Assembly: GCA_964483175.1 (NCBI GenBank)
Contig: CAZAAT010000001.1
Span: forward strand, 73,292 to 129,305
Length of the DNA stretch: 56,014 nt
Source of the DNA: an uncultured Bacilli bacterium
GTDB taxonomy: Bacteria; Bacillota; UBA5301
Direction of reading: 5' to 3'
The notes below the pieces were generated by a model. The model worked only from the letters and a program-made list of their open reading frames with translations, did no database searches and was not told the origin of the DNA. A program made the translations under genes and the position numbers. Positions 7,835 through 32,965 of the stretch are shown piece after piece. Position 1 is the stretch's first letter; the number at the start of each line of letters is the position of its first letter.

Positions 7835-7885
7835 GGAAAAATAACGAAACTAGAAGGGGGCCGTTACTCTTCGGCCCCCCCTTCT
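7835..7885 (-). terminator. Rho-independent terminator after fdhE
   Basis: On the minus strand, AGAAGGGGGGGCCG-aagagtaa-CGGCCCCCTTCT is followed by AGTTTCGTTATTTTT. Confidence 0.75.
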
Positions 7886-7907
7886 CATATGATTATATAT
7901 TCACTTT

Positions 7908-8756: not shown

Positions 8757-8788
8757 TTGATCCCCTCCTTGATCTTTGGCCTTACAGA

Positions 8789-10147: not shown

Positions 10148-10156
10148 GCCAACCTC

Positions 10157-10495
10157 CTAAACTGTATGCATAAAATCAAAGACTTCTTCTTTATGGATAT
10201 AGATTTTAACTCTCAACCGCTCGGCCTCTGAATTCAGCAAGCTGCTCAGCTCCTGAAAGCTGCAGGTCATCTCGGATAAATCAACAATCATGTTCATTGT
10301 GAATAGCTCTTGCAGAACCTGTTGGCTAATATCGGCGATGTTAACCTGCTGCTCAGCCAGGACTCGGGAAACCCCCGCGATAATACCAACCCGATCCTTA
10401 CCGATGACGGTTACTACTCCACGCTCAGAGTGAACCTCCGGTTCGGTCAGGGACTTTAAAACAGATAATGTCTCTGCCCTATCGGTCATGCTCAC
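10157..10495 (-). CDS. ACT-domain protein, UPF0237 family
   Basis: VVTVIGKDRVGIIAGVS...ISQQVLQELFTM is an ACT-domain signature. This is the conserved partner of UPF0210. Confidence 0.7.
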   Translation of the reverse strand: MSMTDRAETLSVLKSLTEPEVHSERGVVTVIGKDRVGIIAGVSRVLAEQQVNIADISQQVLQELFTMNMIVDLSEMTCSFQELSSLLNSEAERLRVKIYIHKEEVFDFMHTV

Positions 10496-10500
10496 ACCCC

Positions 10501-12954
10501 TTACTCTTCATCACTAGGCTCATCTTCCTCCGTGCGCGCCATCTGGGCTACAGCAACCACAGAATCACCTTCATCAAGGCGCATGATCCGGACACCCTGG
10601 GTTGCCCGACCAAACGAGGAGATATCCTCCACCGGAATCCGGATAATGACTCCTTCGGCCGTGGTCAACATGATATCATAATCGTCACGGACGATCTTCA
10701 CACCGACGATCGGGCCATTCTTAGCCGTGATATTTAGCGTTTTGATTCCAAAGCCGCCTCTGCCTTGGCGTCGATATTCGTCAATGGCTGTCCGTTTACC
10801 ATAACCATATTGGCTGATAACCAAAACCTCCGAATTGGGGCGAACTACATCAAGGCCAACAACTTCATCGTCATCCTGCAGCCTAATACCGATAACCCCT
10901 CGAGTCATCCTGCCCATTGGCCGAACATCCTCTTCGGAAAAACGGATAGACATCCCTTGTCTGGTTACCATCATCACTTCTTGGTTTCCGTTGGTCAGAC
11001 GAACTCCAATCAGCTCATCACCATCAACCAAGTCAATCGCATTGATCCCATTGGACCTGATGTTCTCGAATTCGCTGATAGCGGTTTTCTTGACCCGGCC
11101 CATTTTGGTTCCCATAAGCAAGTACGCGTTTGGATCAAATTCTCTGATCGGGATAACGGCGTTAATAACTTCGCCGGGCATAATTTGGATCAGATTGATA
11201 ATTGGTGTCCCCCTGGCTTTACGTCCGGCCTGAGGAATCTGATAACCTTTTAATTTATGCATCCGCCCACGGTTGGTAATAAAGAGAATATCAGCATGGG
11301 TGGAGGTGATAAAGAGATGCTCCACGAAATCCTCTTCTTTGGGCATGGCGCCGGTAACCCCGCGGCCGCCACGTTTTTGCGGCCTATAGGTATCAGCAGG
11401 AATGCTCTTGATATATCCCTGATGAGTGATATTGACGACGATCGCCTCATCAGCAACGAGATCTTCCATCTCAAAATCGCCAACCGCGCTGCCGATCATC
11501 GTCCGGCGCGGATCTGCGTACTGTTCTTTGACTTCCAAAAGTTCATCACGGACAATAGCGAAAACCTTGCGGACATCACCGAGAATCTCTTTGTAGTTCG
11601 CGATCTTGGCTAACAAATCTTGATACTCTGCCTCGAGCTTGTCAATCTCTAAAGCAGTCAACCGCCGTAGCCGCATGTCCAAAATAGCCACCGCTTGTTT
11701 TTCCGTAAGCGCAAACTCGGCCATTAAGGATTCTTTAGCGATCTGGTCATTGGCTGACCCCCGGATAATCTTGATAACCCGATCGAGATTGGCCACCGCG
11801 ATCTTGAGCCCTTCGAGAATGTGGGCGCGCTCCTCGGCCTTATCGAGTAAAAACTTGGTTCTCCGCGTAATGACTTCGCGCTGGTGCTCTAAGTAATGGC
11901 GCAGCACCTCATCTAAATTCATCACCTTGGGCTGGTTGTCTACCAGAGCGAGCATGATTACGCCAAAGCTATCCTGGAGCTGCGTATGCTTGAATAACTG
12001 GTTTAGCAGGACATGGGGATTAACATCCCGCCGAAGATCCATCACAATCCGCATGCCTCGGCGATCCGACTCATCACGGAGATCTGTAATACCTTCGATC
12101 TTTTTGTCCCTGACCAGATTGGCAATCTTCTCGATCAGAGAAGCTTTATTAACCATGTACGGAAGCTCATGCACGACGATCCGGGGCTTCCCGTTACTCA
12201 AGGTCTCAATGGTGGTTTTTGCGCGAACCTTGATCGATCCTCGCCCGGTCTGGTAAGCCTTTTTGATCCCCTCTCGGCCCAGGATAGTGCCGCCGGTTGG
12301 AAAATCCGGCCCCTTAATGATCTTCATCAGCTCATCTATCGTTATCTCCGGGTCATCGATCATCGCCACGAGGCCATCAATGACTTCTCCCAAGTTATGC
12401 GGTGGAATATTGGTCGCCATGCCAACGGCAATACCACTGGCACCGTTGACCAAAAGATTAGGGAACCTGGCCGGTAATACCAAGGGCTGCTCCAGCGATT
12501 CGTCAAAGTTAGGGCCGAAGTCGACTGTGTTTTTATCGATGTCTTGGAGCATTTTTAGAGAAAAAGGTGATAATCTGGCCTCCGTATAACGCATAGCAGC
12601 AGGTGGGTCACCATCTACACTACCAAAGTTGCCATGCCCATCGACCAAGCAGTAACGGTAGGAAAACTCTTGCGCCATCCGGACCATGGCGTCGTAGATA
12701 GCTGAGTCTCCATGGGGGTGGTATTTACCCATGACTTCACCGACGATACGGGCGGATTTCTTATGCGGCTTATCCGGCCATAAGGATAACTCGCTCATAC
12801 CGTAGAGAATCCGACGCTGCACCGGCTTGAGTCCATCACGTACATCCGGGAGTGCCCGCTCAACAATAACGCTCATCGCGTAGTTGATATAGGATGTTTT
12901 CATCTCATCGACTATATGAACTGGTACGATTTTACCATCCGTGTATTCTATCAT
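10501..12954 (-). CDS. gyrA: DNA gyrase subunit A
   Basis: 817 aa. It contains the motifs [19 protein letters not shown] and [20 protein letters not shown] and a C-terminal beta-pinwheel repeat region. Confidence 0.97.
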
Positions 12955-12984
12955 TTGGTCTTCCTCCTAAACAACGAGTACTCC

Positions 12985-15181
<2,197 letters not shown>

Positions 15182-15194
15182 ACCCTTCACCCTC

Positions 15195-16367
15195 CTAATG
15201 CTTTGCTCTCGCTGTAATTCGGCCTTCACGAACCTCGTAGATTCTAGCCCCCGCCAAATGAGTCGGATGGAAATATCCCGTTTCCGTAGCAGTTACCAGG
15301 GTTTGAACTTGCTCTTTAACGGTATCTAACAAAAATTTACGACGCGAGGCGTCGAGCTCTGATAAGACGTCATCTAGTAACAACACTGGATATTCACCGG
15401 TTTCTTGACGCATATATTCAAGCTCAGCTAGTTTCAAAGCCAAAGTTGCGGTACGCTGCTGTCCTTGGGAACCATAAGTACGAATTTCACTGGAATTAAT
15501 CAACAAATTCAAATCATCCCTGTGCGGTCCGTACAAACTTATTCCGCGATAAATTTCTTCTTTAGTTTTGGACTTGAGGTAATTCAGCAATGATTCCCGA
15601 ACTTCCTCTTCGTTTAAGGTTAAAGTACCGTCAAGAAACCAACTCCGCTTATTTTGATAAAGCGGGTAACTGGCAACATACTCTAGTGTTAACGACTCCC
15701 GTTCCTCGGTAATGCTGCGGTGTAATTCTTGCGCATATCGCGCAATCTGTTGGAGGGCAAACACTCGTTTAACAATCAGCTTAGAAGCTATTTCCGCTAA
15801 TTGGGTATCGAATACCTCTTTTAGGTCACCAGACAGGTTTTCTTCAGCCATTTGGCGCAATAAATTATTGCGCTGCCTTAAAACTTTTCCGTAATCAATT
15901 AGATTGTTGCGAAATGCCGGGTTAATCTGGGCCAATTCGAAATCAATAAAACGGCGCCGGTGGCTAGGTCCTCCTTTGATGATATTTAAATCTTCCGGAG
16001 TAAAAACAACCACAGTTAAGTAACCGAGCAGTTCACTTCTTTTGGCGATTGGAAAACCATTTAGACTTATGATCTTTCCGGTTTTTGGTGCATATTCTAC
16101 TGTCAAACGCAGATCGCCGCTTTTGGAGGTAACCCGACTCTGCACGCGAAAACCATTGGGCTCCCGTTGATCACCGACGCGTCTAATTAACTCGCGATCA
16201 TGGGTGGTTCGAAACGATTTTCCCGTAGCACAAACGTACACTGCTTCAATGAGATTAGTTTTACCTTGGGCATTATCTCCGTATAAAAGGTTTAATCCAG
16301 GTCCAAACGAGATTTTGGCCTGGTCATATCCCCGAAAATTCATCAATTCGAGTTCCGCAATTTTCAC
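15195..16367 (-). CDS. recF: DNA replication and repair protein RecF
   Basis: It has the Walker A motif GDNAQGKTN, the signature SQGQQRT, and LLLDDVLSELD. Confidence 0.93.
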   Translation of the reverse strand: MKIAELELMNFRGYDQAKISFGPGLNLLYGDNAQGKTNLIEAVYVCATGKSFRTTHDRELIRRVGDQREPNGFRVQSRVTSKSGDLRLTVEYAPKTGKIISLNGFPIAKRSELLGYLTVVVFTPEDLNIIKGGPSHRRRFIDFELAQINPAFRNNLIDYGKVLRQRNNLLRQMAEENLSGDLKEVFDTQLAEIASKLIVKRVFALQQIARYAQELHRSITEERESLTLEYVASYPLYQNKRSWFLDGTLTLNEEEVRESLLNYLKSKTKEEIYRGISLYGPHRDDLNLLINSSEIRTYGSQGQQRTATLALKLAELEYMRQETGEYPVLLLDDVLSELDASRRKFLLDTVKEQVQTLVTATETGYFHPTHLAGARIYEVREGRITARAKH

Positions 16368-16591
16368 TGGTTAGACTCCGTTGTCGCAACCAACCATACC
16401 CCGGCATCTTCAACTTCAACCCGATCGCCGTGATACAACTTTCTCCCACGTCGTTGTTCAACCTCGTCATTTACTTTAACCAAACCTGACTTGATTACAA
16501 ATTTAGCTTCACCGCCACTCGCGACGATGTTAGCAAATTTCAAAAATTGGTCGAGTGTTATAAACTCCGTCGTAATTAGAATTTCCTCCAT
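16364..16591 (-). CDS. yaaA: S4-domain RNA-binding protein YaaA
   Basis: 75 aa with an S4-like fold motif (FITLDQFLKFANIVASGGEAK...NDEVEQRRGRKL). It holds the conserved slot between dnaN and recF. Confidence 0.8.
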   Translation of the reverse strand: MEEILITTEFITLDQFLKFANIVASGGEAKFVIKSGLVKVNDEVEQRRGRKLYHGDRVEVEDAGVWLVATTESNQ

Positions 16592-16595
16592 GTTC

Positions 16596-17702
16596 TCACC
16601 TTAACAACACCGGCATGATAACGTAAGTATAATTCTCATCATTAGCCGGAACAATCACCGCCGGACTATTACGCCCAGTCAGCTTTAGTTTGACCTGTTC
16701 AACATCAAGAATTCTGAGAACTTCGATGATGTATCGTGCATTAAAGGCGATCTCTAACTCATCCCCAGCAACCTCACAATAGATTTCATCATAAGTTTCT
16801 CCTACATCTGGAACATTAGCTGAAAGGGCGATTTTTTCAGAGGAGACGGAAAACTTAACTACGCTAGCCCCCTCTCTAGCAAGCAGCGAAGCCCTCTCTA
16901 CCGCCATCAGGAATTCAACGCGATCAACTACCGCTTCTGTGGCAAAAGTAGTCGGGATCGGCTGACGATAGTTAGGGAACTGACCGTCAATCAGGCGCGA
17001 GACAAATCTAGTCTCATTGATCTGAAATAAAATATGGTTGGTACTGAGTAAAATTTGTACCTGCTCCTCGGTACTATCTAAAACCCTACTGACCTCTGTC
17101 AAACACTTCGTTGGCACAATTACTTTAAACTGACCGAAGTTTTGCTCAAAATCTTGAACTCGCAACGCCAAACGAGAAGTGTCAGTCGCACATAGAGTGA
17201 TTGTATTATCGATAATATCCCACAAAACACCGGTCAGAAAAGGTCTGGTTTCATCTAGTGAAACTGCAAAAGTAGTCTCTTTGATCATTTTTCTCAGGTC
17301 GTTTTGGGGGATAGTCCAGAAACCTTCCTCTTTGGTCTCTGGCAGTGCAGGATAATCTTCAGCCGGCATCGGGTTGACTACAAATCGTGAGCTGCCGCTC
17401 TTAATCTCCACACTATTTTTCCCCTCAATCACGCCTACCGTAAGACCTTGGCTTGGTAGTTTGCGAATAATATCGGTTAAATATTTGGCTTCAAGTACCA
17501 CGGCGCCTTCTTCGTGGACCTTCACCGGAAGATAGCTTTCGATTCCTAATTCAAGATCGGTGGAGACTAGACGTAATCGATCATCTTTAGCCTCTAGCAA
17601 GATCCCGGATAGGATTGGTAGCGTCGACTTTGAGGGAACAGCTCTACCGACAACTTGAAGTCCCTGGTAAAAAAGGTCTCTTGGACATTCAAATCTCATC
17701 AT
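16596..17702 (-). CDS. dnaN: DNA polymerase III beta sliding clamp
   Basis: 368 aa. It reads MRFECPRDLF...LPILSGILLEA... and ends ...YVIMPVLL-like. It follows dnaA. Confidence 0.95.
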   Translation of the reverse strand: MMRFECPRDLFYQGLQVVGRAVPSKSTLPILSGILLEAKDDRLRLVSTDLELGIESYLPVKVHEEGAVVLEAKYLTDIIRKLPSQGLTVGVIEGKNSVEIKSGSSRFVVNPMPAEDYPALPETKEEGFWTIPQNDLRKMIKETTFAVSLDETRPFLTGVLWDIIDNTITLCATDTSRLALRVQDFEQNFGQFKVIVPTKCLTEVSRVLDSTEEQVQILLSTNHILFQINETRFVSRLIDGQFPNYRQPIPTTFATEAVVDRVEFLMAVERASLLAREGASVVKFSVSSEKIALSANVPDVGETYDEIYCEVAGDELEIAFNARYIIEVLRILDVEQVKLKLTGRNSPAVIVPANDENYTYVIMPVLLR

Positions 17703-17948
17703 TGATACCGCCTTTCACCTGATTCACAAGCTTTACTATATCTTTAAATTAATAATTTGTTTAGTAGTAGTAGTAATAGAGGCTGTAGATTCTGTTGAAA
17801 ACTATGACTTCGGCCGCCCGTTGGCTGCATTAGGCTGTGGAAAAGGCTGTGAATTAAGTGGACACTTAATCACAATTTCCCGCTTGTTTATATAGCCGAT
17901 TAGTTTTCCAGATAATATCCACTTGCTTATACACAGCAGTATCTACAG
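17703..17948 (-). other. oriC sub-region between dnaA and dnaN: DnaA boxes, GC cluster, TAG-trio run and AT-rich unwinding element
   Basis: Box-like 9-mers are TGTGGAAAA (17836..17844), TTATACACA (17927..17935) and ATATCCACT (17915..17923). The GC cluster cggccgcccg is at 17811..17820 and an AT-rich tract runs about 17733..17780. Confidence 0.7.
17762..17779 (+). repeat. Trinucleotide run (TAG)4-TAA-TAG, a candidate DnaA-trio element
   Basis: Read directly as tagtagtagtagtaatag. It is embedded in the AT-rich tract of the dnaA-dnaN spacer. Confidence 0.5.
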
Positions 17949-19280
17949 TTACTTCAAGTTCTGAATTAGCTCTTTAATAACATTGGCCAACTCAGGATCT
18001 TGTTGCACAGCCTCTGAAATCTTTTCATAAGCGTGTAAAACAGTTGTATGATCACGTCCGCCAAAGGCTTCTCCGATCTTAGGTAGTGAGGCATCTGTTA
18101 ATTCTCGAGAAAGATACATGGCAACCTGTCTGGGGAAAGCAATAGAGCGACCCCGTTTGCGCGAATGCATTTCTGAAATATCGATTTCATAATACTGTGA
18201 AACGGCTTTTTGAATATCTTTGATCTCCACTTTACTTTTTTTGACGTTGAGTAGAATATCTTTCAGAGCTTCACTAGCCAGGGCAATATCTATTGGTCTG
18301 TTAGTTAAAGATGAATAGGCCACAACTCGGATTAGGGCTCCTTCTAATTCTCTGATGTTCGAATTAATATTTTCAGCAATAAAAGTCAGCGCTTCTGGTT
18401 GGATTTTGATCTTCTCCAACGAAGCTTTTTTGTCGAGAATAGCGATTCTGGTTTCTAGATCTGGAGCTTGAATATCGGTTATTAAGCCCCATTCAAAGCG
18501 AGACCTCAAGCGGTCTTCCAGCGTGGGAATTTCCCTAGGGGGACGATCTGAAGATAACACAATCTGCTTATTTGCTTCATGCAAGGCATTAAAAGTGTGG
18601 AAAAACTCCTCTTGAGTTCGTTCCTTGCGAGCTAAAAACTGAATGTCGTCGACTAGCAAAACGTCGATATTACGATAACGTTCGCGAAATTCGGGAGTTT
18701 TGTCATCCCTGATGGCGTTAATGATATCATTGGTGAACTGCTCGGAAGTTACATACATGACGTTTGTCTCTGGAGCCGTTTCCAGGACAAAATGTCCGAT
18801 CGCATGCATCAAGTGGGTCTTGCCGAGACCAACGCCACCATAGATAAACAATGGGTTATAAGCGCGAGCCGGTGCTTCGGCTACAGCTAGCGCGGCCGCG
18901 TGAGCAAAGCGATTACTATTACCAACTACGAAGGTGTTAAAGGTGTACTTAGGGTTGAGTCTGCCCCTTTGAGCAGCGGTCTCAGCTGTTTTTGCTCCGG
19001 CGTTGCTGGTGGTAGGTTTTTCGATAGCCTCCCCAGGAACGAGATAACTGCACTCCAAATCAGCATTCGAAACAGCCAGAAGGCTCTGTTGAATGATCTC
19101 AGAATAATGACTCTCGATCCAGTTACGGATGAAGTCATTCGGGGCTTCAAAAAAAACAGTACCCCCCACGATTTGTAGAGGTTTGAGCGATTTCACCCAG
19201 GTATCTAAACTGGCTTTCGGCAATTGGCCCTGCATCTCGGCTAATGCCGATTCCCAAAGCTTTTGCAAGTCGAATGACAC
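17949..19280 (-). CDS. dnaA: Chromosomal replication initiator DnaA
   Basis: It has the AAA+ Walker A motif GGVGLGKTHL, the sensor motifs, and a C-terminal DNA-binding domain (...FGGRDHTTVLHA). I prefer the GTG start at 19280 because AGGTGA lies 5 nt upstream. The ORF track starts three codons earlier, at 19289. Confidence 0.95.
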   Translation of the reverse strand: MSFDLQKLWESALAEMQGQLPKASLDTWVKSLKPLQIVGGTVFFEAPNDFIRNWIESHYSEIIQQSLLAVSNADLECSYLVPGEAIEKPTTSNAGAKTAETAAQRGRLNPKYTFNTFVVGNSNRFAHAAALAVAEAPARAYNPLFIYGGVGLGKTHLMHAIGHFVLETAPETNVMYVTSEQFTNDIINAIRDDKTPEFRERYRNIDVLLVDDIQFLARKERTQEEFFHTFNALHEANKQIVLSSDRPPREIPTLEDRLRSRFEWGLITDIQAPDLETRIAILDKKASLEKIKIQPEALTFIAENINSNIRELEGALIRVVAYSSLTNRPIDIALASEALKDILLNVKKSKVEIKDIQKAVSQYYEIDISEMHSRKRGRSIAFPRQVAMYLSRELTDASLPKIGEAFGGRDHTTVLHAYEKISEAVQQDPELANVIKELIQNLK

Positions 19281-19289
19281 AAAAATCAC

Positions 19290-20105
19290 CTAAACTCTTT
19301 TTTGTCCAACTTTAAACTGCGGGTTAAGCATTCGCTTTCCCCCATCAACCTGAATAAGGAGTCCTAACTCTGTTAGCGCAACCATGTCGCGATATGCAGA
19401 GCTGGGACTAGTGTTAATATACTCGGCAAGCCTCGATGGACCAAGCGGTCCCTGACTGCTCAACACGGTCAGGATTGCTTGCTGCCGATCTGTGAGGGAA
19501 GCAAAGATCTCCGCCTGAAAAGCGTGGTTTGTTAGTCTTTCACCAAGCGAAGGGTCACTTCCTTCCTCCGGGGCCTGCTCATTGTGGAGTGAATCCGCTA
19601 CACAAGCAGAGCTATTTGCCCATAAAGTTACCACCGTACCTTTGTGTAGGTTGTCAGAAATCTCAAGTTGACCTCCTATTTTCTTTAGATAAAAAGAAGC
19701 GAGTGCCAATCCCTGCCCCATTCCACGGATATATCGCCTCTGCTTCGAGGTTACAGAAGTATATCCCGGTAAAATGGCGAGCTCTTTATTTGCAATGCCC
19801 GGACCCTGATCAGCAATCCTAACTCCGCTGCCATCTGCAAAAACAGTGATCAGCGGATCGGCGAAATCAGAGTGCACCAAGTTATCAACAACTTCTTTGA
19901 TAGTCGAAGATGGTAAGGTTCCACCGCATTTGCAATGCAACCGATGGGTCTTTGTGGTTAGCGTGGTTAGCATAGTAGATAGATTTCTTTCGGAGATAAT
20001 TGTGGTTTCACTATTATTATTGGTTGGGTCATATAAAGCGAGCCTAGCCTCGAAAAACGGCAAACGGAAGGTTGAAATGAAATTTTGAAGCTTGAAACGA
20101 TTCAT
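19290..20105 (-). CDS. Uncharacterised GHKL-type ATPase domain fused to a C-terminal winged-helix DNA-binding domain
   Basis: It has an N-box-like EVVDNLVHS, a G1 box DQGPGI and a G2 box GMGQGL. The C-terminus LTDRQQAILTVLSSQGPLGPSRLAEYINTSPSSAYRDMVALTELGLLI looks like a wHTH. I prefer the ATG start at 20105 (AAGGATG upstream), because the ORF-track start at 20147 overlaps a DnaA box. The TAG stop at 19290..19292 overlaps the dnaA RBS. Confidence 0.6.
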   Translation of the reverse strand: MNRFKLQNFISTFRLPFFEARLALYDPTNNNSETTIISERNLSTMLTTLTTKTHRLHCKCGGTLPSSTIKEVVDNLVHSDFADPLITVFADGSGVRIADQGPGIANKELAILPGYTSVTSKQRRYIRGMGQGLALASFYLKKIGGQLEISDNLHKGTVVTLWANSSACVADSLHNEQAPEEGSDPSLGERLTNHAFQAEIFASLTDRQQAILTVLSSQGPLGPSRLAEYINTSPSSAYRDMVALTELGLLIQVDGGKRMLNPQFKVGQKRV

Positions 20106-20137
20106 TCTGTGTTTCACATCCTTGTCAAAACAAGTAA

Positions 20138-20530
20138 GTATCCACAATTGTTAACCAACGTTTTTCCTGTTTGCCGTAATATTCGCGGTGAAGTTATCCA
20201 CAACCTGCTTTTTCAGCATGGTGTTCTAGACAGCTTATCCGCTCTTTGTGGTCAAAGCCGCTCTCCAAGCGGTTAGCGCCGATTTTTCTAGTTGGAGAAG
20301 CTCTTAGCATTTATGCGGATTTGCGCGATCAAGCCCAACTTTTCCACAGGTTTTCCACAACTTGAAAATCAACAGAGAATCCACAAGTCCCCAGGACTTA
20401 TCCACTGAAATATCCACAGATTATTTTGCAAAGGAAGTGAAATGGTTAAATTAATGATTACAAGCCTGTTTGCTGAAGCCGCAATCTATCCAAAGAAGTA
20501 TCCACAAAGTTATCCACAGTCTGTGGATTA
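20138..20530. other. oriC sub-region: DnaA-box cluster between rpmH and the dnaA-proximal gene
   Basis: Perfect TTATCCACA boxes lie at 20194..20202 and 20510..20518. One-mismatch boxes lie at 20138, 20340, 20351, 20398, 20410 and 20498, with an inverted TGTGGATTA at 20522..20530. A two-mismatch box is at 20377. Confidence 0.85.
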
Positions 20531-20538
20531 ACTCATTC

Positions 20539-20567
20539 TTGACTAATATTGGTCATTAAGATAAACT
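20539..20567 (+). promoter_or_regulatory. Candidate sigma-A promoter of rpmH
   Basis: TTGACT (20539..20544), a 17-nt spacer, then TAAACT (20562..20567). Confidence 0.5.
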
Positions 20568-20625
20568 ACTAGTGGTTATTTTCATTAATAAAGCATTGGT
20601 CGTGCGAATACAGGGGGTGGGTGCG

Positions 20626-20760
20626 GTGAAACGGACTTTCCAGCCAAATAATCGTAGGCGGAAAAGGGTTCACGGTTTTTTGAGCCGGATGAGCACTCGT
20701 GCTGGTAGGCGGGTAATTAGTCGCCGCCGTCGGCGGGGACGCAAGGTGCTATCAGCTTAG
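20626..20760 (+). CDS. rpmH: 50S ribosomal protein L34
   Basis: [44 protein letters not shown]. The GTG start at 20626 has GGGGGTGG upstream. The ORF-track start at 20572 is too long for L34. Confidence 0.95.
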
Positions 20761-20768
20761 TTTATTTA

Positions 20769-20802
20769 ATGAGGTCTCATCAGGGGACCTCATTTCATAT
20801 TT
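20769..20802 (+). terminator. Hairpin between rpmH and rnpA (partial terminator or attenuator)
   Basis: ATGAGGTC-loop-GACCTCAT forms an 8-bp stem followed by a T-rich tract, TTCATATTT. Confidence 0.4.
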
Positions 20803-21165
20803 ATGGGAGTTATGATGCATACTAAATTGATTACTCTCAGTGATCAAAGAGCGATCTCGGCATTGTTTGACCAAGGAATTTCGGTTGCCAATCGGTTTTT
20901 TGTAGTTAAGGCCCGGGGTAATGGTCTTGAATGTGCTCGCTTCGTTTTTGCAGTTGGTAAACGATACGGTAACGCGGTGCGGCGCAATCGGATTAAGCGG
21001 CAAATCAGAGAAATCTTGCGCCAAAATATGGATATGATAGAAGTTGGATTTGATTACGGGGTTATTCCTCGGCGTAGTTGTTTGGAGCAGCCGTTTGTGC
21101 TTTTGCGCGAAGCTCTTCTGGAGTGTTTAGCTCGGGCAGCGCGTAAAGGAAGGGAAGTGCGATGA
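20803..21165 (+). CDS. rnpA: Ribonuclease P protein component
   Basis: 120 aa, basic, with the RNR motif [15 protein letters not shown]. It lies between rpmH and yidD. Confidence 0.9.
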
Positions 21166-21371
21166 CTTGGTTAGCCATTAAGTTAATCCGGCTCTATCAG
21201 CGGGCTATTTCCCCACTGTTTCCACGAACTTGTCGCTATTACCCTACCTGTTCGCAGTATACGATTGAGGCGATTAATAAGTATGGTTGTTGGCGAGGGT
21301 GTTGGTTAGGAGCGAAACGGATTCTGCGCTGCCACCCGTTCCATGAAGGCGGATACGATCCTGTTCCCTAG
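21162..21371 (+). CDS. yidD: Membrane protein insertion efficiency factor YidD
   Basis: [34 protein letters not shown]...RILRCHPF is the family signature. Confidence 0.92.
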
Positions 21372-21463
21372 TTTATTTTCCTTTAATAGCAGGATTTTGT
21401 GGGCCGGGGTGTAAACTTTTTCAGTTAGGTTCTTTTTTAATGCAAAGAAGGTGGGGCTGACAA

Positions 21464-22093
21464 TTGAGCTTCTTAACAGGTATTATCTCGTCTGCACTGA
21501 GTTTTTTTTATGACCTCACGCAAAGCTGGGGTTTGGCCATTATTATGCTGACGATAGTCATCAGACTTCTGATGCACCCTTTGACGGTGAGCCAGTCTAA
21601 AAGTATGTTGGTCATGCGTAAACTGCAGCCGAAAATGAAAGAACTCCAGGAGAAGTATAAAGATAAACCCGAAGAGTACCAAAAACGGATGATGGCCTTG
21701 TACAAGGATCATAAGGCCAATCCGCTTGGTGGCTGCTTACCAATGTTGATTCAGATGCCGATTTTATTTGCACTATTTTATGTGTTGCGTGATGCGAACT
21801 ATGGTGAAGCCGGATTTTTGTGGATTCCATCCCTAAGCGCACCGGATCCTTCGTATCTATTGCCGCTGTTGACTGCTGCTTCGACATATATTCAGATGAA
21901 ATTGACGACTACCGACCCATCCCAGCAGGGTATGTTGTATATAATGCCGCTATTTATCGGTTTTATTAGCCTAAGCTTTCCTGCTGGCTTAACTCTGTAC
22001 TGGGTAATCAGCAATATTACCGGTTATTTTCAACAATTATTTATTAACAAGCGCTTAATGGCTTTAGATGAAGAGGGGAGCGTAGCAAATTGA
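21464..22093 (+). CDS. yidC: YidC/Oxa1-family membrane protein insertase (short Firmicute form)
   Basis: 209 aa with motifs ...AIIMLTIVIRLLMHPL...MRKLQPKMKELQEKYKD...NPLGGCLPMLIQMPILFALF.... Confidence 0.9.
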   Translation: MSFLTGIISSALSFFYDLTQSWGLAIIMLTIVIRLLMHPLTVSQSKSMLVMRKLQPKMKELQEKYKDKPEEYQKRMMALYKDHKANPLGGCLPMLIQMPILFALFYVLRDANYGEAGFLWIPSLSAPDPSYLLPLLTAASTYIQMKLTTTDPSQQGMLYIMPLFIGFISLSFPAGLTLYWVISNITGYFQQLFINKRLMALDEEGSVAN

Positions 22094-22794
22094 GATCCAT
22101 CGAATCCGTTGGAAAGACTGTAGAAGAAGCGATTGATGAGGCTCTAAGCAAACTCAAGGTCACTAGAGACCAGGTGCAAATTGAGGTTATCGATGAGGGT
22201 GCCAAAGGTATTTTTGGCTTAATCGGCACCAAATTGGCCAGGGTTAGGGTATCGATTAAGCCGGTGCCACAAGATAAATTGGTAGCTGCTCCGCTAGCGA
22301 GCTCAAGTACAAATGCAGCTACAATGCCTCCAACTGAGCAGCCGACGGAGAAGGTCGAGTGGGGCAAAGAGTTTCTTCTTCAGCTACTAACCAAGATGGG
22401 GGTAGATGGTGAAGTAGAAGTTGCTGGTGTCGACGAGGTCATTAATTTATCCATCACCGGCGAAAATATCGGTTTAATCATCGGTCATCGTGGACAAACC
22501 TTGGATTCGATTCAGTATTTAACTAACTTAGCTGCTAGTAAGGCTGGCCTCGAAGGTCCAAAGTTTGTGGTGGATGCGGAAAACTATCGTGCCAGACGCC
22601 AAAAGACCTTAGAACAGCTTGCGGATAGGTTAGCTAACAAAGTTATTACCCGCCGCCGCAAAGCGATTTTAGACCCCATGTCACCCCAGGAGCGTCGGGT
22701 TATTCACCTATATCTCAGAGATAATCCAAGTGTATGCACCTACAGCGAAGGAAAAGAACCTTATCGCCGGGTGATTATCGACCTGAAAAGATAA
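22090..22794 (+). CDS. jag: Jag/KhpB RNA-binding protein (Jag_N, KH, R3H)
   Basis: It has the N-terminal GKTVEEAIDEAL, the KH-like IGHRGQTLDSIQYL, and the C-terminal R3H region MSPQERRVIH. It follows yidC. Confidence 0.88.
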   Translation: MRSIESVGKTVEEAIDEALSKLKVTRDQVQIEVIDEGAKGIFGLIGTKLARVRVSIKPVPQDKLVAAPLASSSTNAATMPPTEQPTEKVEWGKEFLLQLLTKMGVDGEVEVAGVDEVINLSITGENIGLIIGHRGQTLDSIQYLTNLAASKAGLEGPKFVVDAENYRARRQKTLEQLADRLANKVITRRRKAILDPMSPQERRVIHLYLRDNPSVCTYSEGKEPYRRVIIDLKR

Positions 22795-22823
22795 ACGATT
22801 TTAGCTTGTGTTATCAGGCTGAG

Positions 22824-22858
22824 AGTCGCCGGCTTTTGCGCTGGCGACTTGTTTTATT
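22824..22858 (+). terminator. Rho-independent terminator after jag
   Basis: AGTCGCCGGC-ttttgc-GCTGGCGACT forms a 10-bp stem with one G-U pair. It is followed by TGTTTTATT. Confidence 0.7.
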
Positions 22859-22898
22859 AACGGTAATTTTCGATAAGCTATCGTAAGAGGTGTTTCTG

Positions 22899-24290
22899 GT
22901 GAGCATCGTGTTTGATAATGACACTATTGCGGCTATCTCCACTCCCTTGGGTGAGGGCGGACTCGCCATTATCCGTGTTAGCGGGGATAATGCCGTAAAA
23001 GTCGTCGACCAGGTATTTGCTCCAGGGGGCAAAGTCAAGCCTGATTTTCTTGGTTCAGCACCTAGCCATACAGTCCATTATGGCTACATTCTCAATCGGC
23101 TGGGAGAACGCGTCGACGAGGTGTTGGTATCGGTAATGTTGGCGCCACGCACGTTCACCAGGGAAAATACCGTTGAAATCAGCTGTCATGGTGGAATGGT
23201 GAGCGCGCAAAGGGTTTTGGAGGCTGTTCTTGATTCAGGTGCCAGACTGGCAGAGCCGGGGGAATTCACCAAAAGGGCTTTTCTAAATGGGCGTATCGAT
23301 TTGGCCCAAGCAGAAGCGGTAATCGATCTAATTCGCGCCAAGACCGAATCAAGTCATGCAGTTGCTCTGACTAATTTACGTGGTGGACTCTCCGAAAGGG
23401 TGCGCGCCATTCGCGAAGCCGTTGTCGAGGTGTTAACCTACTTGGAGGCCTCCATTGATTTTCCCGAGGACGAGATCCCACCGCTCGAGCAAGACCTCGA
23501 CCAGTTGCTCACTCGGGCCCAAGCTGAGGTAACCTCGCTAATCGAAACGGCGCGGACCGGACGGATTTATCGCGAGGGGCTAGCGACAGTCATTTTGGGG
23601 CGTCCTAATGTTGGAAAGTCTAGTTTGCTCAATGCCTTATTAGGTGAGGAGCGGGCGATTGTAACCCAGATTCCCGGAACAACGAGGGACCTACTCGAGG
23701 AACAGTATAACTTGCGCGGTTTACCGTTACGAATAATCGATACAGCGGGTATTCGGGCGACCTCCGATGAAGTTGAGAAAATCGGCGTAACCAGGAGTGT
23801 TGAGGCTATATCTCGTGCAGATATCATCCTTTTCCTTGTCGATTATTCTAGCGGGCTTACTCCGGAGGATCTCGAGCTAGCTACTACTTTACCTGTAGAT
23901 CACACCATATTAGTGGCAAATAAAGCGGACTTACCGCCAGGATCCGGATTTTACGAACTTGAGGATCGTTTTGGTGAACCGGTGCTAATTTCGGCCAAAG
24001 ATCAGACCGGCCTTGATGCTCTCAAAGATCGGATCTTACACACGGCTAGCGTAATTAAGGTTGACAGTACGCAGACCGTCTTGGTTACTAACCTGCGTCA
24101 TGTGGAGGCATTACGTCATGCCCACGAGGCTCTTCAGAATGCCCATAAGGCTTTAGACGGCGCAATGCCGGCCGATTTAATTACCATAGATCTGCATTCG
24201 GCCGTGGACCATCTAGGTGAAATAACTGGCGATACAGCCTCTGCTGACGTAATTGATCGCATTTTTGCTAATTTCTGCATTGGAAAGTAG
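22899..24290 (+). CDS. mnmE: tRNA modification GTPase MnmE
   Basis: It contains [22 protein letters not shown], the G1 motif GRPNVGKSS, and the C-terminal FCIGK. I prefer the GTG start at 22899, 8 nt after AAGAGG. The ORF track starts at 22890. Confidence 0.93.
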
Positions 24291-24298
24291 GGACGGAA

Positions 24299-26179
24299 AT
24301 GGGTTTTGCTCAAGCCTACGATGTTGTGGTAATCGGTGCTGGTCATGCCGGTTGTGAGGCAGCCTTGGCTACCGCCAAAATGGGCTTACGAACGCTAATT
24401 CTTACGATTAGTTTGGATAATGTTGGCCTAATGCCGTGTAACCCCAGCATCGGCGGGGCGGCCAAAGGACAGTTGGTGCGAGAAATCGATGCTCTCGGCG
24501 GGGCTATGGGTCTGGCCATCGACCAGACATATATTCAAATCAGGATGCTCAATACCAGCAAAGGACCTGCTGTCCATGCGTTACGTGCTCAAATCGATAA
24601 GTTTGCCTATATGCGGTGGATGAAGCGGCAGTTAGAAGAAACCCCCAATCTCGATTTCAAGCAAGGGGTTGTGACCAAAATTCTGACTCGGGGCGATCGA
24701 GTTATCGGGGTGCGCTTAAAGACGGAGATTGATATTGCTGCCAAGGCCGTCATTGTGGCTACCGGAACTTATCTGCGCGGGCTGGTTCATTATGGGCTTG
24801 TGCATTACTCCTCCGGACCACAAGGACAGCATCCTTCAGTCGAGTTAGCCCATAGTCTAATGGAATTTGGATTTGAATTACAACGCTTTAAGACCGGGAC
24901 CCCTCCCAGAATTCATGGGGATTCGGTGGATTATAGCAAGACCACCGAAATGCCGGGGGAAGAGTTGCGGCGTGGTTTCTCCTTTCGGGCACCTTTGCCC
25001 CGGCGTCAGCAAGTCTCGTGTTGGTTAACCCAGACCACTCAGCAGACTCATGAGATTATTCGGCAAAACTTGGATAAGGCTCCGATGTACACCGGTGAAA
25101 TTACCGGGATTGGTCCGCGGTATTGCCCTTCACTGGAGGCTAAAGTTTACGAGTTTCCCGACAAGCAGAGCCACCAAATCTTCATCGAGCCTGAAGGCAT
25201 TGGTACCAAGGAGATGTATTTGGCCGGTTTTTCCACCAGTTTGCCGGAGGATATTCAGATCGAGATGATCCGGACTGTCCCCGGGTTGGAAAACGTAGAA
25301 ATAATGCGGCCCGGTTACGCCATCGAATATGATGCGTTGGACCCGCTAGATTTGAAGTCTACTTTGGAGACTAAGGCGATCAGAGGTCTGTTCTGTGCGG
25401 GGCAGATCAATGGAACCTCCGGGTATGAAGAGGCGGCTGCGCAAGGGTTAATCGCAGGCATCAATGCGGCCTTGGCGATCAAAGAGGCCGAGCCTTTGGT
25501 GCTCAAACGATCCCAAGCCTATATTGGAGTGCTAATCGATGATTTGGTTACCAAAGGAACGCGCGAGCCGTATCGACTCCTGACAGCTAAAGCCGAATAT
25601 CGCCTGCTTTTACGGCAGGACAATGCCGATCTTAGACTCACCGAACTGGGATATCAACTTGGTTTGATTAGTGATCCGGTCTATACTGCTTTTCTACAGA
25701 AAAAGGAAGGTATTGAGAGGCTGCGGACCAAACTCAAAGAAGAGGTTATTCCGCCCAGCCCGGCGGTGAATGAAAAGCTATCTGACCTCGGGCAGGCTCC
25801 ACTACAGCGCTCAGTGAGCGCCGAGGTCTTCTTGCGCCGCCCGGAGATCAATTTCAATCTGTTATCCGAGTTTATCTCACTTAACACCGAGGAGATCGAT
25901 CCGGAAGTTGCCGAGCAGGTTGAATTGCAAGTCAAGTATAGCGGATATATCGAACGCCAGCAGGATCAGGTTGAGCGGTTCCTTAAACTGGAAGCCAAGA
26001 AGATCCCGCCTGATCTCCAATTTGAGTCTTTGCATGGTCTTAGCTCGGAAGCTCGGGAAAAATTAGCCCGGGTTCGCCCTGAATCACTCGGTCAGGCCGC
26101 GCGAATCTCCGGGGTATCGCCTGCGGATATCAACTATTTGGCAATTATCTTAGAACAACGCCGGAGAGGAAGGGCTTAA
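24299..26179 (+). CDS. mnmG: tRNA uridine 5-carboxymethylaminomethyl modification enzyme MnmG
   Basis: 626 aa with the FAD motif [18 protein letters not shown] and GPRYCPSLE. Confidence 0.95.
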
Positions 26180-26180
26180 G

Positions 26181-26915
26181 ATGAGTGCTTTATTCGAGTG
26201 TCAACAGACTTTGGCTACTAACCTGGCTCAATTAGGTTTATTTGATGACCGGAGCATTCCCGGTATTACGGAAAAGCTGCTCCTTTTCGCGGATGCGGTG
26301 TTGGAGGAAAATACGCGGCAAAATCTTACCAGAATCACCGAACCAGCAGCTGTTGTCAGCCGTCACCTCATAGACTCGCTTTCAGTTTTACAATGGCTGA
26401 AGGTACGTCCTGCCCGGGTCTGCGATGTAGGCACCGGAGGCGGTTTTCCCGGCGTACCGTTGGCTATTGCCGTTCCAGAGTTTCAAGTTACGCTCATCGA
26501 TAGCGAGAACAAGAAGGTTGCCTTTCTAAACCGTATCGCGAACGAGCTGGGTTTAACCAATGTTACTGCGATGCACCTCCGTGCCGAAGAGGCCGGCCAA
26601 GATCGGGCGCTAAGAGAAAGCTTTGCGATAGTTGTTTCTCGTTCTGTAGCTAGATTATCTATTCTTTATGAGTATACACTCCCACTGTTAAGGACCGGGG
26701 GGACGTTTTGGGCTTATAAGGGGGAAACAGCCCGCGAGGAAGCTGAGGAGGCTCAGCCGGCCCTGGAAATCCTAGGTGGAGCACTAGTTGGACTCAGGGA
26801 CTATGAGCTTCCTACGGGTGAAACCCATACCTTAGTACAAGTTGAAAAGGTCTCATCGACCCCGCAGCGCTACCCCCGCAGGGCTGGTCTTCCCGCTAAA
26901 CGTCCACTCCGCTAG
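26181..26915 (+). CDS. rsmG: 16S rRNA (guanine527-N7)-methyltransferase RsmG
   Basis: It has the SAM motif VCDVGTGGGFPGVPLAI. It holds the conserved position after mnmG. Confidence 0.9.
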   Translation: MSALFECQQTLATNLAQLGLFDDRSIPGITEKLLLFADAVLEENTRQNLTRITEPAAVVSRHLIDSLSVLQWLKVRPARVCDVGTGGGFPGVPLAIAVPEFQVTLIDSENKKVAFLNRIANELGLTNVTAMHLRAEEAGQDRALRESFAIVVSRSVARLSILYEYTLPLLRTGGTFWAYKGETAREEAEEAQPALEILGGALVGLRDYELPTGETHTLVQVEKVSSTPQRYPRRAGLPAKRPLR

Positions 26916-26956
26916 AGGAGATACGCTCCGCTCTGCCGAAAAACTATCCCAAAGAA

Positions 26957-26972
26957 TGTTTCACGTGGAACA
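26957..26972. promoter_or_regulatory. parS centromere-like site
   Basis: TGTTTCACGTGGAACA is the reverse complement of TGTTCCACGTGAAACA, a 16/16 match to the Bacillus-type parS consensus. Confidence 0.85.
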
Positions 26973-26991
26973 TTATGGGGGATATGCATAT

Positions 26992-27831
26992 ATGACCGAT
27001 ACGATTTGGGGCAAATTGTTGCGAAAACCTTCGCAAACCGACTCTCGCGCCCTGCTCAATCTTCCGGTTGGCTCGATTAATCCCAATCCCTTTCAGCCGC
27101 GGCGTAGTTTTAATGACGAGGAGCTCCAGGAGCTCACAGAATCGATCAAGACGCACGGAATTCTCCAGCCGTTGGTTGTCACTATGTCTGCAGGCGAAAA
27201 ATCAGAATATATATTGGTTGTAGGGGAACGGAGACTGCGGGCGGCCCAACTGGCCGGACTGACAGAGGTCCCCGCGATTCTTGCCAACTACACGGATCAG
27301 GAGCTTGCAGAGGTGGCGCTGGTTGAGAATCTCCAACGCAAGGATTTAACTCCGATTGAGGAAGCGATCGCATTCAAAAAATTGCTGGAGGAATATGGGC
27401 TAACCCAGCAAGAACTTGGGGCGCGCCTGGGCAAGAGTCAGAGTGCAATAGCGAATAAAGTTCGATTACTTAATTTGCCGCCTGAAGTCTTGGATTATAT
27501 TTCCCGGGAAATAATTACTGAACGCCATGGGCGAGTGCTCTTAAAACTGCCGCCAGAGTTGGCGAAAAAGGTAGTGGAGCAGGTGGTTAAGGCAGGTTTG
27601 TCAGTAAAGCAAACCGAAGCCCTGGTTGAACAGTTGCTGACTGAAAAACCAAGCAAAGAAAGGCGAGTCATCCGAATTTTTAAGGATGCGCGCTTGTTTA
27701 GAAATTCGGTATTACACCTGGTTAAGGAGTTACAGGCGAGTGGTCTCGCGGTTAAAGTGACCGAAGAAGATCAAGCAGATAGTTATCAATTGACGATCAA
27801 TATATCTAAAGCGAGTAGGAGGCAGTCTTGA
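26992..27831 (+). CDS. noc: ParB-family paralogue (Noc-like nucleoid occlusion / Spo0J-like protein)
   Basis: It has the ParB box PNPFQPRRSFNDEELQELTESIKTHGILQPLVV and GERRLRAA. The ATG start at 26992 follows GGGGGA. The ORF-track start at 26842 overlaps rsmG and is rejected. Confidence 0.75.
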   Translation: MTDTIWGKLLRKPSQTDSRALLNLPVGSINPNPFQPRRSFNDEELQELTESIKTHGILQPLVVTMSAGEKSEYILVVGERRLRAAQLAGLTEVPAILANYTDQELAEVALVENLQRKDLTPIEEAIAFKKLLEEYGLTQQELGARLGKSQSAIANKVRLLNLPPEVLDYISREIITERHGRVLLKLPPELAKKVVEQVVKAGLSVKQTEALVEQLLTEKPSKERRVIRIFKDARLFRNSVLHLVKELQASGLAVKVTEEDQADSYQLTINISKASRRQS

Positions 27832-28601
27832 TGGGGCGGATCTTGGCGGTAGTTAACCAAAAGGGTGGGGTTGGCAAGAGTACAACGACGGTAAACCTTT
27901 CTGCCTATTTGGGGGCTGCAGGCAAAAAAGTGCTGATGCTCGATATCGATCCCCAAGGGAATGCCACCAGCGGGATGGGGATTGATAAATCAGAGGTGGA
28001 TAAATCGATCTATGACGTATTGATTAACGATATCCCTGTGGCAGAGGCGGTTGTGACATGTAAATATCCGGAATTGTCTAGTGTGGATATTTTGCCGGCG
28101 ACGATCCAATTAGCCGGTGCTGAAGTTGAGCTCGTTTCGATGATGAGTAGAGAATACCGCTTGAAGATGGCCCTTGAAGGATTAACTGATCGATATGACT
28201 ATATCATCATGGATTGTCCCCCTTCGCTGGGCCTACTGACGATAAATGCTCTAACGGCGGCCGATGGAGTAATTGTACCGATTCAATGTGAGTACTATGC
28301 ATTAGAAGGATTAAGCCAACTCTTAGATACAGTTAACCTGGTCAAAAAACATTTAAATCGTTCGTTGGAAATAACCGGGGTGCTATTGACGATGTATGAT
28401 TCGCGGACTAATCTTGCTCAACAGGTAATAGATGAGGTGAAAGGATACTTTGCAGGCAAGGTATTTGAGACGATTATCCCCCGGAACATTCGTCTAAGTG
28501 AGGCCCCGGGCTATGGGAAGCCAATATTATTGTATGATCCGACCTCGAAAGGGGCCGTGGCGTACAAGGCGTTAAGGGACGAGGTGATCAAACGTGGCTA
28601 G
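27828..28601 (+). CDS. soj: ParA/Soj chromosome partitioning ATPase
   Basis: It has the deviant Walker A motif NQKGGVGKSTT, plus DCPPSLG. 257 aa. Confidence 0.93.
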   Translation: MMGRILAVVNQKGGVGKSTTTVNLSAYLGAAGKKVLMLDIDPQGNATSGMGIDKSEVDKSIYDVLINDIPVAEAVVTCKYPELSSVDILPATIQLAGAEVELVSMMSREYRLKMALEGLTDRYDYIIMDCPPSLGLLTINALTAADGVIVPIQCEYYALEGLSQLLDTVNLVKKHLNRSLEITGVLLTMYDSRTNLAQQVIDEVKGYFAGKVFETIIPRNIRLSEAPGYGKPILLYDPTSKGAVAYKALRDEVIKRG

Positions 28602-29448: not shown

Positions 29449-29458
29449 GGTGAAAACC

Positions 29459-30610: not shown

Positions 30611-30615
30611 AACAG

Positions 30616-32461: not shown

Positions 32462-32466
32462 AAGGG

Positions 32467-32940: not shown

Positions 32941-32965
32941 CCAAATAAGTGTGAGGTGGAATAGT

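Follow-up and report, generated by a model that had tools for sequence, protein, structure and literature searches.

The stretch of DNA analyzed here, called the window throughout, comprises 56,014 nucleotides (nt) of a contig from an uncultured Bacilli bacterium (GTDB lineage Bacteria; Bacillota; UBA5301; assembly GCA_964483175.1, contig CAZAAT010000001.1). Directly upstream of dnaA, on the minus strand of the window, lies an open reading frame (ORF 19290..20105/20147) that is given the working name gene X and forms the subject of this study. The frame is open over 19290..20147, yielding 285 codons from a TTG at 20147 or 271 codons from an ATG at 20105, the latter being the start picked by the gene caller for the X protein (P0001); residue numbers follow the 271-residue form. 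An earlier note on this DNA, made from the letters alone, had placed such an ORF between a cluster of DnaA boxes and dnaA, and both the frame and its homologues bear this out. Read directly, the minus strand at the X/dnaA junction is ...AAA AGA GTT TAG GTG ATT TTT GTG TCA..., which agrees with the further claim that the TAG stop of X sits in the AGGTGA Shine-Dalgarno sequence of dnaA. Translation of dnaA from the GTG at 19280 gives MSFDLQKLW..., with the GTG at 19289 as an alternative start, and a search for a terminator-like site between X and dnaA found none.

A word-indexed search returned X itself and six relatives, one at 69% identity and five at 32–36%, while a profile search across 1.84 billion representatives yielded 379 clusters at E ≤ 1e-30 and 538 at E ≤ 1e-10, above the generic HATPase background. 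The relatives amount to approximately 380 clusters at 50% identity and, in a second indexed search, to more than 1000 clusters at 90% identity. These clusters carry only the names 'ATP-binding protein', 'histidine kinase', 'anti-sigma regulatory factor' and 'hypothetical', none of them specific, and the JGI pipelines label relatives of X 'anti-sigma regulatory factor (Ser/Thr protein kinase)'. The view that the ORF is spurious, or a recent and functionless insertion into the origin, could draw on the lack of a clear Shine-Dalgarno sequence at canonical spacing for either start of X (an AAGGA lies 13 nt before the ATG) and on the absence of a gene at this place in most bacteria. However, the number of clusters, in which the catalytic motifs are invariant, the confident predicted fold, the identity of 69% to the orthologue of the nearest relative and the lack of mobile-element genes or repeats flanking X all speak against it. 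Homology and conservation together rule this view out and leave it practically no probability; X is a real gene.

Relatives of X occur in 316 of 185,579 GTDB species (approximately 0.17%, with one genome per species). The best 80 of these 316 species hits, together with six other distinct placements, were inspected at the level of the locus, with neighboring genes being located by tblastn using the DnaA, DnaN, RpmH and RnpA of the window. The best 80 loci stem from metagenome-assembled genomes (MAGs) or uncultured assemblies labelled Actinomycetota, Armatimonadota, Bacillota/Clostridia or Ca. Sysuimicrobiota, and the members in Actinomycetota belong to the Coriobacteriia, Humimicrobiia, Thermoleophilia and Aquicultor. 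In 77 of the 80, dnaA lies directly 3′ of X on the same strand and is itself followed by dnaN; the remaining three stop 37–364 nt after X at a contig end and are uninformative. With the six other placements included, X immediately precedes dnaA in all 83 non-redundant loci that are informative, which come from four phyla, and among these 83 loci no copy of X was found elsewhere than beside dnaA, so that homologues scattered over random loci, an outcome considered in the earlier note, are not what is seen. Three more distant or long-linker members keep the same layout. Two X loci, L073 (2366 nt) and L086 (2099 nt), lie in bins labelled Desulfuromonadales and Verrucomicrobiota and have the usual rpmH and/or dnaA neighbors; they are probably mis-binned, and the family is not thereby shown outside Bacillati.

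The divergent rpmH gene lies 420–965 nt upstream of X in most loci, and 60 of 74 non-redundant loci have a perfect DnaA box in the spacer between rpmH and X. Wherever genes were called, the neighbors of X are rpmH/rnpA and dnaA/dnaN, whereas other gene order near the origins is reshuffled between these phyla, with gidB, parAB and DciA coming and going. The closest relative, whose DnaA is 88% identical to that of the window, retains X with the same abutting junction; an absence of X from close relatives, likewise envisaged in the earlier note, is thus not observed. Across the family, the stop codon of X and the start codon of dnaA are separated by 0 to approximately 90 nt, typically with only a GGAGG-like ribosome-binding site inside. 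The proposed translational coupling of X and dnaA would be confined to this lineage, with its abutting junction, as the gap is wider in others.

For comparison, 80 metagenome loci were picked by their similarity to the window DnaA alone (45–59% identity), of which 66 have enough upstream DNA. None of these 66 control loci carries X, and the association of X with dnaA is hence not an artefact of locus choice. The rpmH gene is seen in 44 of the 66, mostly at 250–890 bp from dnaA with no gene between, and the 66 controls support the statement that the rpmH-dnaA spacer is normally non-coding. Over 72 X-bearing loci, the pairwise identities of X and DnaA are correlated (Pearson/Mantel r = 0.78, a value reached in 0 of 999 permutations), and the median pairwise identities of 0.49 for X and 0.52 for DnaA indicate that the two are under about equal constraint. 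This correlation is what would be expected if X and DnaA had long been inherited together under strong constraint. The X of the window lineage is unusually divergent, with a median identity to other X proteins of 35%, compared to 53% for its DnaA. A DnaA signature of X-bearing genomes (with P344, P23, L158 and Q159 among its columns) is not found in the window DnaA and was rejected as a mark of phylogeny rather than of X.

The X protein consists of an ATPase domain and a C-terminal winged helix-turn-helix (wHTH) domain. Pfam assigns HATPase_c to residues 82–176 (E 1e-8) and HTH_11/DeoR/IclR to residues 221–275, both in the numbering of the 285-residue form, whereas a match to HisKA or another dimerization and histidine phosphotransfer (DHp) domain in Pfam is lacking even at E ≤ 1. 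HATPase_c is matched by 55 of 55 family members and HATPase_c_2 by only 2 of 55, at E ≥ 0.0018, while 44–53 of the 55 match IclR/TrmB/MarR-type wHTH models. NCBIfam holds no specific family for X and returns only the tails of many histidine-kinase models. The AlphaFold2 (AF2) model, built on the 55 family members and with a mean predicted local distance difference test score (pLDDT) of 82, comprises a hairpin (residues 18–39) bearing the motif RLAxYD with invariant A23 and Y25, a helix (42–59), a Bergerat ATP-binding domain (approximately 66–162), an acidic linker and a winged helix (approximately 187–262). The motifs EVVDNLVHS, DQGPGI and GMGQGL named in the earlier note are all present, and its description of a GHKL-type ATPase without DHp, followed by an acidic linker and a C-terminal wHTH, is upheld by Pfam, AF2, Foldseek and the 55 members. 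Some lineages have a greatly lengthened linker between ATPase and wHTH, with X sizes ranging from 260 to 490 residues; many members of 330–490 residues match as two stretches (P0018–P0022, P0044, P0110 and others; L169 4001..4999), and the long-linker Coriobacteriia member P0371 (332 residues) is very widespread, being found in 141 blocks of the collection.

Foldseek matches the X model to histidine-kinase catalytic domains (CpxA over approximately 105 columns, root-mean-square deviation (rmsd) 3.3 Å, 22–26% identity) and then to PDK/BCK kinases. A comparison of the X-family profile with all PDB sequences retrieves no family member among the solved structures; it yields distant kinase, CheA, MutL and SpoIIAB matches (mitochondrial BCK/PDK at E ~1e-5, MutL at ~8e-4 over 57 residues and anti-sigma F at ~5e-3) and, for the wHTH, PhiH1-repressor and MarR-type proteins. 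The catalytic and ATP-binding domains of histidine kinases (CpxA, HK853, EnvZ, KinB) are the best matches of X in both sequence and fold, sharing the N, G1 and G2 boxes and the Bergerat α/β sandwich of approximately 100–150 residues. However, X differs from these kinases in lacking a DHp/HisKA domain, a conserved phospho-acceptor histidine, a sensor or membrane part and an adjoining response-regulator gene, and in having its ATPase domain fused directly to a DNA-binding domain. The top full-length structural match (E 6e-6) is DIP2311 of Corynebacterium diphtheriae (PDB 3lmm; AlbA_2 + HATPase_c_4 + wHTH), a structural-genomics target of unknown function and the only solved protein found in which, as in X, a Bergerat ATPase-like domain is combined with a C-terminal winged helix. 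Unlike DIP2311, X has no large N-terminal AlbA_2 domain and no HATPase_c_4 match, and the two align with only 11–12% identity, a TM (template modeling) score of ~0.4 and an rmsd of 13–18 Å. A defence-system identity was rejected, as PADLOC gave generic wHTH similarity only (Csa3, CasR, WYL), and a viral structure library gave X no matches beyond generic histidine kinases and HTH proteins.

Conservation was computed over 72 X sequences from four phyla. Identical in all of them are A23, Y25, E71, N75, H78, F81, D99, G101, G103, K107, G114, I126, G130, G132, L133, N152, G156, V158, T160, G222, P223, R239, L244, G256 and R258, and the X of the window holds every one of these residues. The family motifs read RLAxYD, E-x2-E-N-L-I-H-A-x-F, DQGPGI-x2-K, GVGSGLP and DNL-x2-GTVVTL, followed in the wHTH by S-T-A-Y-R and G-K-R. 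In the GHKL fold, ATP and Mg are contacted by the N box (E-x3-N), the G1 box (D-x-G-x-G) and the G2 box (G-x-G-x-G-L), and because these contact residues are invariant in X, ATP binding is under selection. The invariant glutamate four residues before the asparagine occupies the catalytic-base position of GyrB, MutL, Hsp90 and SpoIIAB. The sole invariant histidine is H78, inside the N box, and a conserved phospho-acceptor histidine is thus absent. The S-T-A-Y-R residues of the recognition helix (S235 to R239) are conserved at 97, 93, 91, 81 and 100% and the G-K-R residues of the wing (G256 to R258) at 100, 84 and 100%; as both elements are nearly fixed across phyla, the target of X is expected to be conserved itself. 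The positions of these elements and of the surrounding genes are collected in Table 1.

Table 1. Features of gene X and its surroundings in the window (coordinates in nt; strand given where assigned)
Feature	Position	Strand	Remarks
Gene X	19290..20105	-	271 codons + TAG from ATG 20105; homologues; first cistron of the X-dnaA-dnaN operon
Hairpin + helix + histidine-kinase-type Bergerat domain	19611..20063	-	To approximately residue 165; AF2, Foldseek, Pfam
N box EVVDNLVHSDF	19863..19895	-	Residues 71-81; E71, N75, H78, F81 100% conserved
G1 box DQGPGI	19794..19811	-	Residues 99-104; D99, G101, G103 invariant
G2 box GMGQGL	19707..19724	-	Residues 128-133; family consensus GVGSGL; G130, G132, L133 invariant
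Acidic linker	19548..19610	-	Approximately residues 166-186; predicted disordered, pLDDT <50; top-residue frequency 0.23
C-terminal wHTH	19320..19547	-	Approximately residues 187-262; recognition helix S235-S-A-Y-R239; wing G256-K-R258
X/dnaA junction	19280..19292	-	Stop TAG 19292..19290 within strong Shine-Dalgarno AGGTGA 19291..19286; 5-nt spacer; dnaA GTG 19280
dnaA	17949..19289	-	Second cistron; DnaA of relative L001 88% identical, L001 ORF with DnaA_N/Bac_DnaA/Bac_DnaA_C
dnaA-dnaN spacer	17703..17948	-	Downstream half of oriC; 2 near-consensus DnaA boxes, TACTACTACTAC run, AT-rich stretch
dnaN	16596..17702	-	Third gene of the cluster, 3′ of dnaA
Upstream DnaA-box cluster	20138..20530	.	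9 boxes with ≤1 mismatch, 2 of them perfect (20194..20202, 20510..20518)
Conserved block upstream of X	20138..20225	-	~88 nt, nearly identical in relative L001
Promoter-like site facing X	20420..20449	-	TTAACC, 18 nt, AATAAT; consensus match only
rpmH	20572..20760	+	Divergent from X
Noc-like ParB paralogue	26842..27831		Follows rsmG
ParA/Soj	27828..28601		Beside the Noc-like and Spo0J genes
ParB/Spo0J	28594..29448		End of partition cluster 26842..29448

The GC skew of the window switches sign at 18–20 kb, where the cumulative GC skew also reaches its minimum, and nine sites with at most one mismatch to TTATCCACA lie in the upstream cluster compared to 14 in the remaining ~55.6 kb. The skew minimum and the DnaA-box cluster together identify the X locus as a replication origin. 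The DnaA boxes of the upstream cluster are conserved with respect to the relative L001, and the same arrangement is found across the X family. In a bipartite oriC, this cluster makes up the upstream half, and the promoter of the operon must lie within it. Six promoter-like sites were found compared to 4.2 expected, which is not significant alone. The conserved block of 88 nt carries two DnaA boxes and ~50 nt of conserved non-box sequence and, from its conservation, is a candidate core promoter, 5′ untranslated region or operator. On the other side of dnaA, the dnaA-dnaN spacer contains the TACTACTACTAC run at ~17762..17776, which reads TAGTAGTAG on the other strand and is DnaA-trio-like, as well as a GC-rich stretch, and trio-like TAGTAG words are enriched in this spacer of many X-bearing relatives. 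By its sequence layout, the spacer resembles the half of a Bacillus-type bipartite origin at which unwinding takes place, with the arrangement of a basal unwinding system. Since the box cluster lies upstream and the unwinding-like spacer downstream, X and dnaA sit between the two origin halves.

The listed rpmH ORF, of 62 residues and with a GTG start, opens 18 codons upstream of the conserved MKRTFQP; its true start is probably an internal GTG near 20626 that gives MKRTFQP, which would leave a rpmH-X spacer of ~480–520 nt. Farther along the window, the genes that follow rsmG over 26842..29448 form a standard Firmicute origin-proximal partition cluster. A search of the whole window (1..56014) for tRNA, rRNA or any Rfam family gave none at threshold; in many Firmicutes, an rRNA operon lies near gyrA. 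At the other end, positions 1..2779 and 4789..7567 form a perfect (100%) direct repeat of 2.78 kb at an offset of 4788 bp, which takes in the greater part of a molybdopterin-oxidoreductase gene (4563..6929, minus strand) together with the DNA upstream of it. This gene belongs to a formate-dehydrogenase-like cluster with a 4Fe-4S protein gene (3768..4562), a cytochrome b gene (3075..3767) and an FdhE-like gene (7908..8756), and the repeat reflects a tandem duplication of very recent date or else an artefact of the assembly.

Contigs assembled from compost metatranscriptomes (runs X26 and X27) lie inside the window X at 19356–19506 and 19954–20160, and the X/dnaA junction is crossed by contigs covering 19249–19399 and 19208–19379, from two runs of uncertain purity. 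In the relative L009, an anaerobic-digester metatranscriptome contig lies inside X at 4218–4352, and the X/dnaA junction at 4816/4817 is reached or crossed by contigs 4682–4832 and 4599–4820. Contigs end at 20144–20160 in three runs, just downstream of the 88-nt conserved block, and these ends may mark the 5′ end of a transcript. A further digester contig of L009 lies at 3655..3792 within the DnaA-box spacer between rpmH and X and has no strand information; origin DNA upstream of X is thus covered by some transcript. Runs X7 and X25 (labelled 'TRANSCRIPTOMIC ... DNase') show flat coverage and contigs of more than 90 kb and probably contain DNA, and the true metatranscriptomes yield contigs at only 2–4× depth. 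The junction-crossing contigs, strandless and at low depth, lend weak support to co-transcription of X and dnaA, so that the expectation that X is transcribed, and transcribed with dnaA, holds in so far as contigs cover X and cross the junction, at a depth that keeps this support weak.

What is established at this locus is the gene with its domain make-up, the conservation of the residues of the ATP site and of the DNA contacts, the arrangement of the operon and a strict, long-standing linkage to dnaA and DnaA boxes. X probably acts in replication initiation, as a partner or a regulator not described before. The reading to which we give somewhat better than even chances makes it a DNA-binding regulator, gated by ATP, whose site of action is the locus that encodes it: it would affect dnaA operon transcription and/or the extent to which DnaA occupies the upstream half of the origin. 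The X-dnaA-dnaN operon would be transcribed out of the upstream DnaA-box cluster of the bipartite oriC, and X, being made from a promoter inside this cluster, would itself come under any DnaA autoregulation. The protein would bind ATP in its histidine-kinase-type Bergerat domain and DNA through its C-terminal winged helix, with nucleotide binding or hydrolysis setting its conformation or dimer state. The winged helix would then bind the origin and the dnaA-promoter region, and this binding would adjust how strongly the dnaA operon is transcribed and/or how far DnaA occupies the upstream boxes, thereby coupling the energy state to DnaA supply and initiation. The DNA target of X, the role of ATP, its catalytic activity and the positive or negative sign of its effect are what we infer here from gene architecture and synteny.

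Several observations weigh against an ATP-gated regulator acting on its own origin. Enrichment of k-mers over 68–74 non-redundant rpmH-X spacers, with the DnaA boxes either masked or unmasked, gave no X-specific motif: the enriched words are DnaA boxes and promoter-like TTGAAA/TATA only, and the only DNA word common to X-bearing origins is the DnaA box, whose density is alike in X-bearing spacers (7.8 per kb) and X-free controls (6.9 per kb). Perfect boxes continue with GG more often in X-bearing spacers (G at +9 in 64% compared to 29% in X-free controls), but this G-rich flank is confounded by genome GC content, as the X-bearing set is probably richer in G+C, and it permits no conclusion. The wHTH of X could also contact protein instead of DNA. 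The glutamate E71, four residues before the Mg-binding N75, hints from its position at catalysis, either hydrolysis or phosphotransfer, rather than at nucleotide sensing alone. In addition, the window X deviates from the family at nine positions that are at least 95% conserved (P32S, E74D, A79S, A118V, V129M, S131Q, P134A, E217S and L241M), and the RNA evidence consists of assembled contigs at ~2–6× depth without strand, for which DNA carry-over is possible. X is present in only 316 of 185,579 species and is therefore not a general requirement for initiation, and no cultured host is found among the 80 best loci, the 120 best profile matches or the 120 best matches of the Coriobacteriia branch, all of which are MAGs or metagenome contigs.

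A bolder and more tentative proposal, possible though clearly behind that of a regulator at its own locus, is that X is an ancient second nucleotide switch, in which a GHKL ATPase or kinase on origin DNA would gate DnaA by phosphorylation or by ATP-dependent competition or cooperation. Such a switch would have been inherited with dnaA since before Bacillota, Actinomycetota and Armatimonadota diverged and would then have been lost in most lineages; given the nearly invariant recognition helix, X might possibly bind the DnaA boxes themselves. The main rival of the regulator reading, rather unlikely in our estimate, makes X a protein kinase or a partner-switching ATPase of the SpoIIAB/RsbW type that targets DnaA or some other protein of initiation. 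Its Bergerat domain would bind and phosphorylate this partner, with the wHTH as a mere tether to the origin, and adjacency and coupled translation would ensure joint production. The invariant pair E71-x3-N75 corresponds to the catalytic-base/Mg pair of SpoIIAB and GHL ATPases, and in the model the N-terminal strand(s) and helix before the N-box helix resemble the small anti-sigma kinases. The profile matches to anti-sigma F and mitochondrial BCK/PDK, the JGI label of the relatives and an X/dnaA junction that is tight or has only a short gap in every lineage point the same way. Yet SpoIIAB and RsbW are single domains of ~145 residues that belong to HATPase_c_2, which only two of the 55 members touch, whereas X has the histidine-kinase-type HATPase_c throughout, a wHTH and a dnaA context. 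Unlike in SpoIIAB/RsbW operons, no gene for a STAS anti-anti-sigma or sigma factor lies nearby in six distinct gene contexts of X; the strong conservation of recognition helix and wing argues that DNA binding is central rather than a tether, and no X-linked DnaA signature is shared by the window.

Two further explanations, both improbable, would remove X from the control of DnaA. In the former, X serves as an origin-architecture or positioning factor, an ATP-dependent dimerizing clamp or bridge that organizes the two oriC halves or anchors the origin without regulating transcription or DnaA. Its location together with dnaA between the box cluster and a dnaA-dnaN spacer with trio-like repeats and AT-rich DNA would suit such a role, as would a conserved wHTH without a lineage-specific operator, and the GHKL ATPases GyrB, MutL and MORC offer a precedent in that they dimerize on ATP and clamp DNA. 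However, GHL ATPases (GyrB, MutL, Hsp90, MORC) have a transducer domain after the ATPase, where X has a disordered linker and the wHTH; its small histidine-kinase-type domain also lacks a GHL-type strap, the MutL match is weak, and the window has separate genes for ParA, ParB and Noc, with ParA/ParB also encoded in one relative. In the latter, X is a one-component transcription factor of the ordinary kind, whose regulon is unrelated and which was captured in the dnaA operon and kept by inertia, in keeping with the general regulators that make up the IclR, MarR and TrmB-type wHTH families and with the failure to find an origin-specific operator. Against capture and inertia stand the position of X, kept without a copy elsewhere in all informative loci of four phyla although origin gene order is otherwise reshuffled between them, and its co-divergence with DnaA under DnaA-like constraint.

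X is a member of none of the known families considered, and works like a one-component regulator, perhaps like the oriC-binding response regulators. The latter comprise Spo0A (Bacillus), CtrA (Caulobacter), MtrA (Mycobacterium) and HP1021 (Helicobacter), which bind oriC and with which X, as proposed, would share by analogy the logic of a signal-gated DNA binder at the origin beside DnaA. Unlike these proteins, X has no receiver domain and no homology to them, carries a kinase-like module fused to its DNA-binding domain and is encoded in the dnaA operon. A role as lineage-restricted accessory factor of initiation might be shared with the DnaA regulators YabA, SirA, Soj and DnaD of Firmicutes and Hda and DiaA/HobA of Proteobacteria, none of which, to our knowledge, has a GHKL fold or a fixed place directly upstream of dnaA. 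Consistent with the statement of the earlier note that X is none of the named regulators (YabA, SirA, Soj, DnaD, Spo0A), X has no match to the YabA, SirA, Soj/ParA, DnaD/DnaB, Spo0A or Hda families in Pfam or NCBIfam at E ≤ 1, and Soj, Spo0J and Noc are separate genes of the window. Archaeal Orc1/Cdc6, an ATPase with a C-terminal winged helix encoded beside its origin, offers an analogy only, as its ATPase is of the AAA+ rather than the Bergerat type and it is itself the initiator, whereas the X locus has an intact DnaA.

In the full-text literature (subscription-only papers being outside its scope), neither the X family nor a conserved gene between rpmH and dnaA in these phyla was found to be described. 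The domains are known; what is new is that they are fused, that the gene has a constant position as first cistron of the dnaA operon, and the role that this implies. Annotation is affected as well: origin-prediction tools presuppose a non-coding rpmH-dnaA spacer, and pipelines call X a 'histidine kinase' or an 'anti-sigma factor', although each of these families has a defining feature that X lacks. What is understood of DnaA control comes mainly from E. coli, B. subtilis and Caulobacter, where lineage-restricted regulators carry it out; no regulator of DnaA is known for most phyla, and we are aware of no second accessory gene with so tight a positional tie to dnaA. If X were indeed a second nucleotide switch, it would represent a form of initiation control without counterpart among the known regulators. 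If X regulates initiation, it would be, as far as we know, the first GHKL-fold protein in initiation control and a simple link between cellular ATP and DnaA supply, and it would provide a handle on replication control in the Coriobacteriia, gut lineages included, in basal Actinomycetota, in Armatimonadota and in several uncultured Bacillota.

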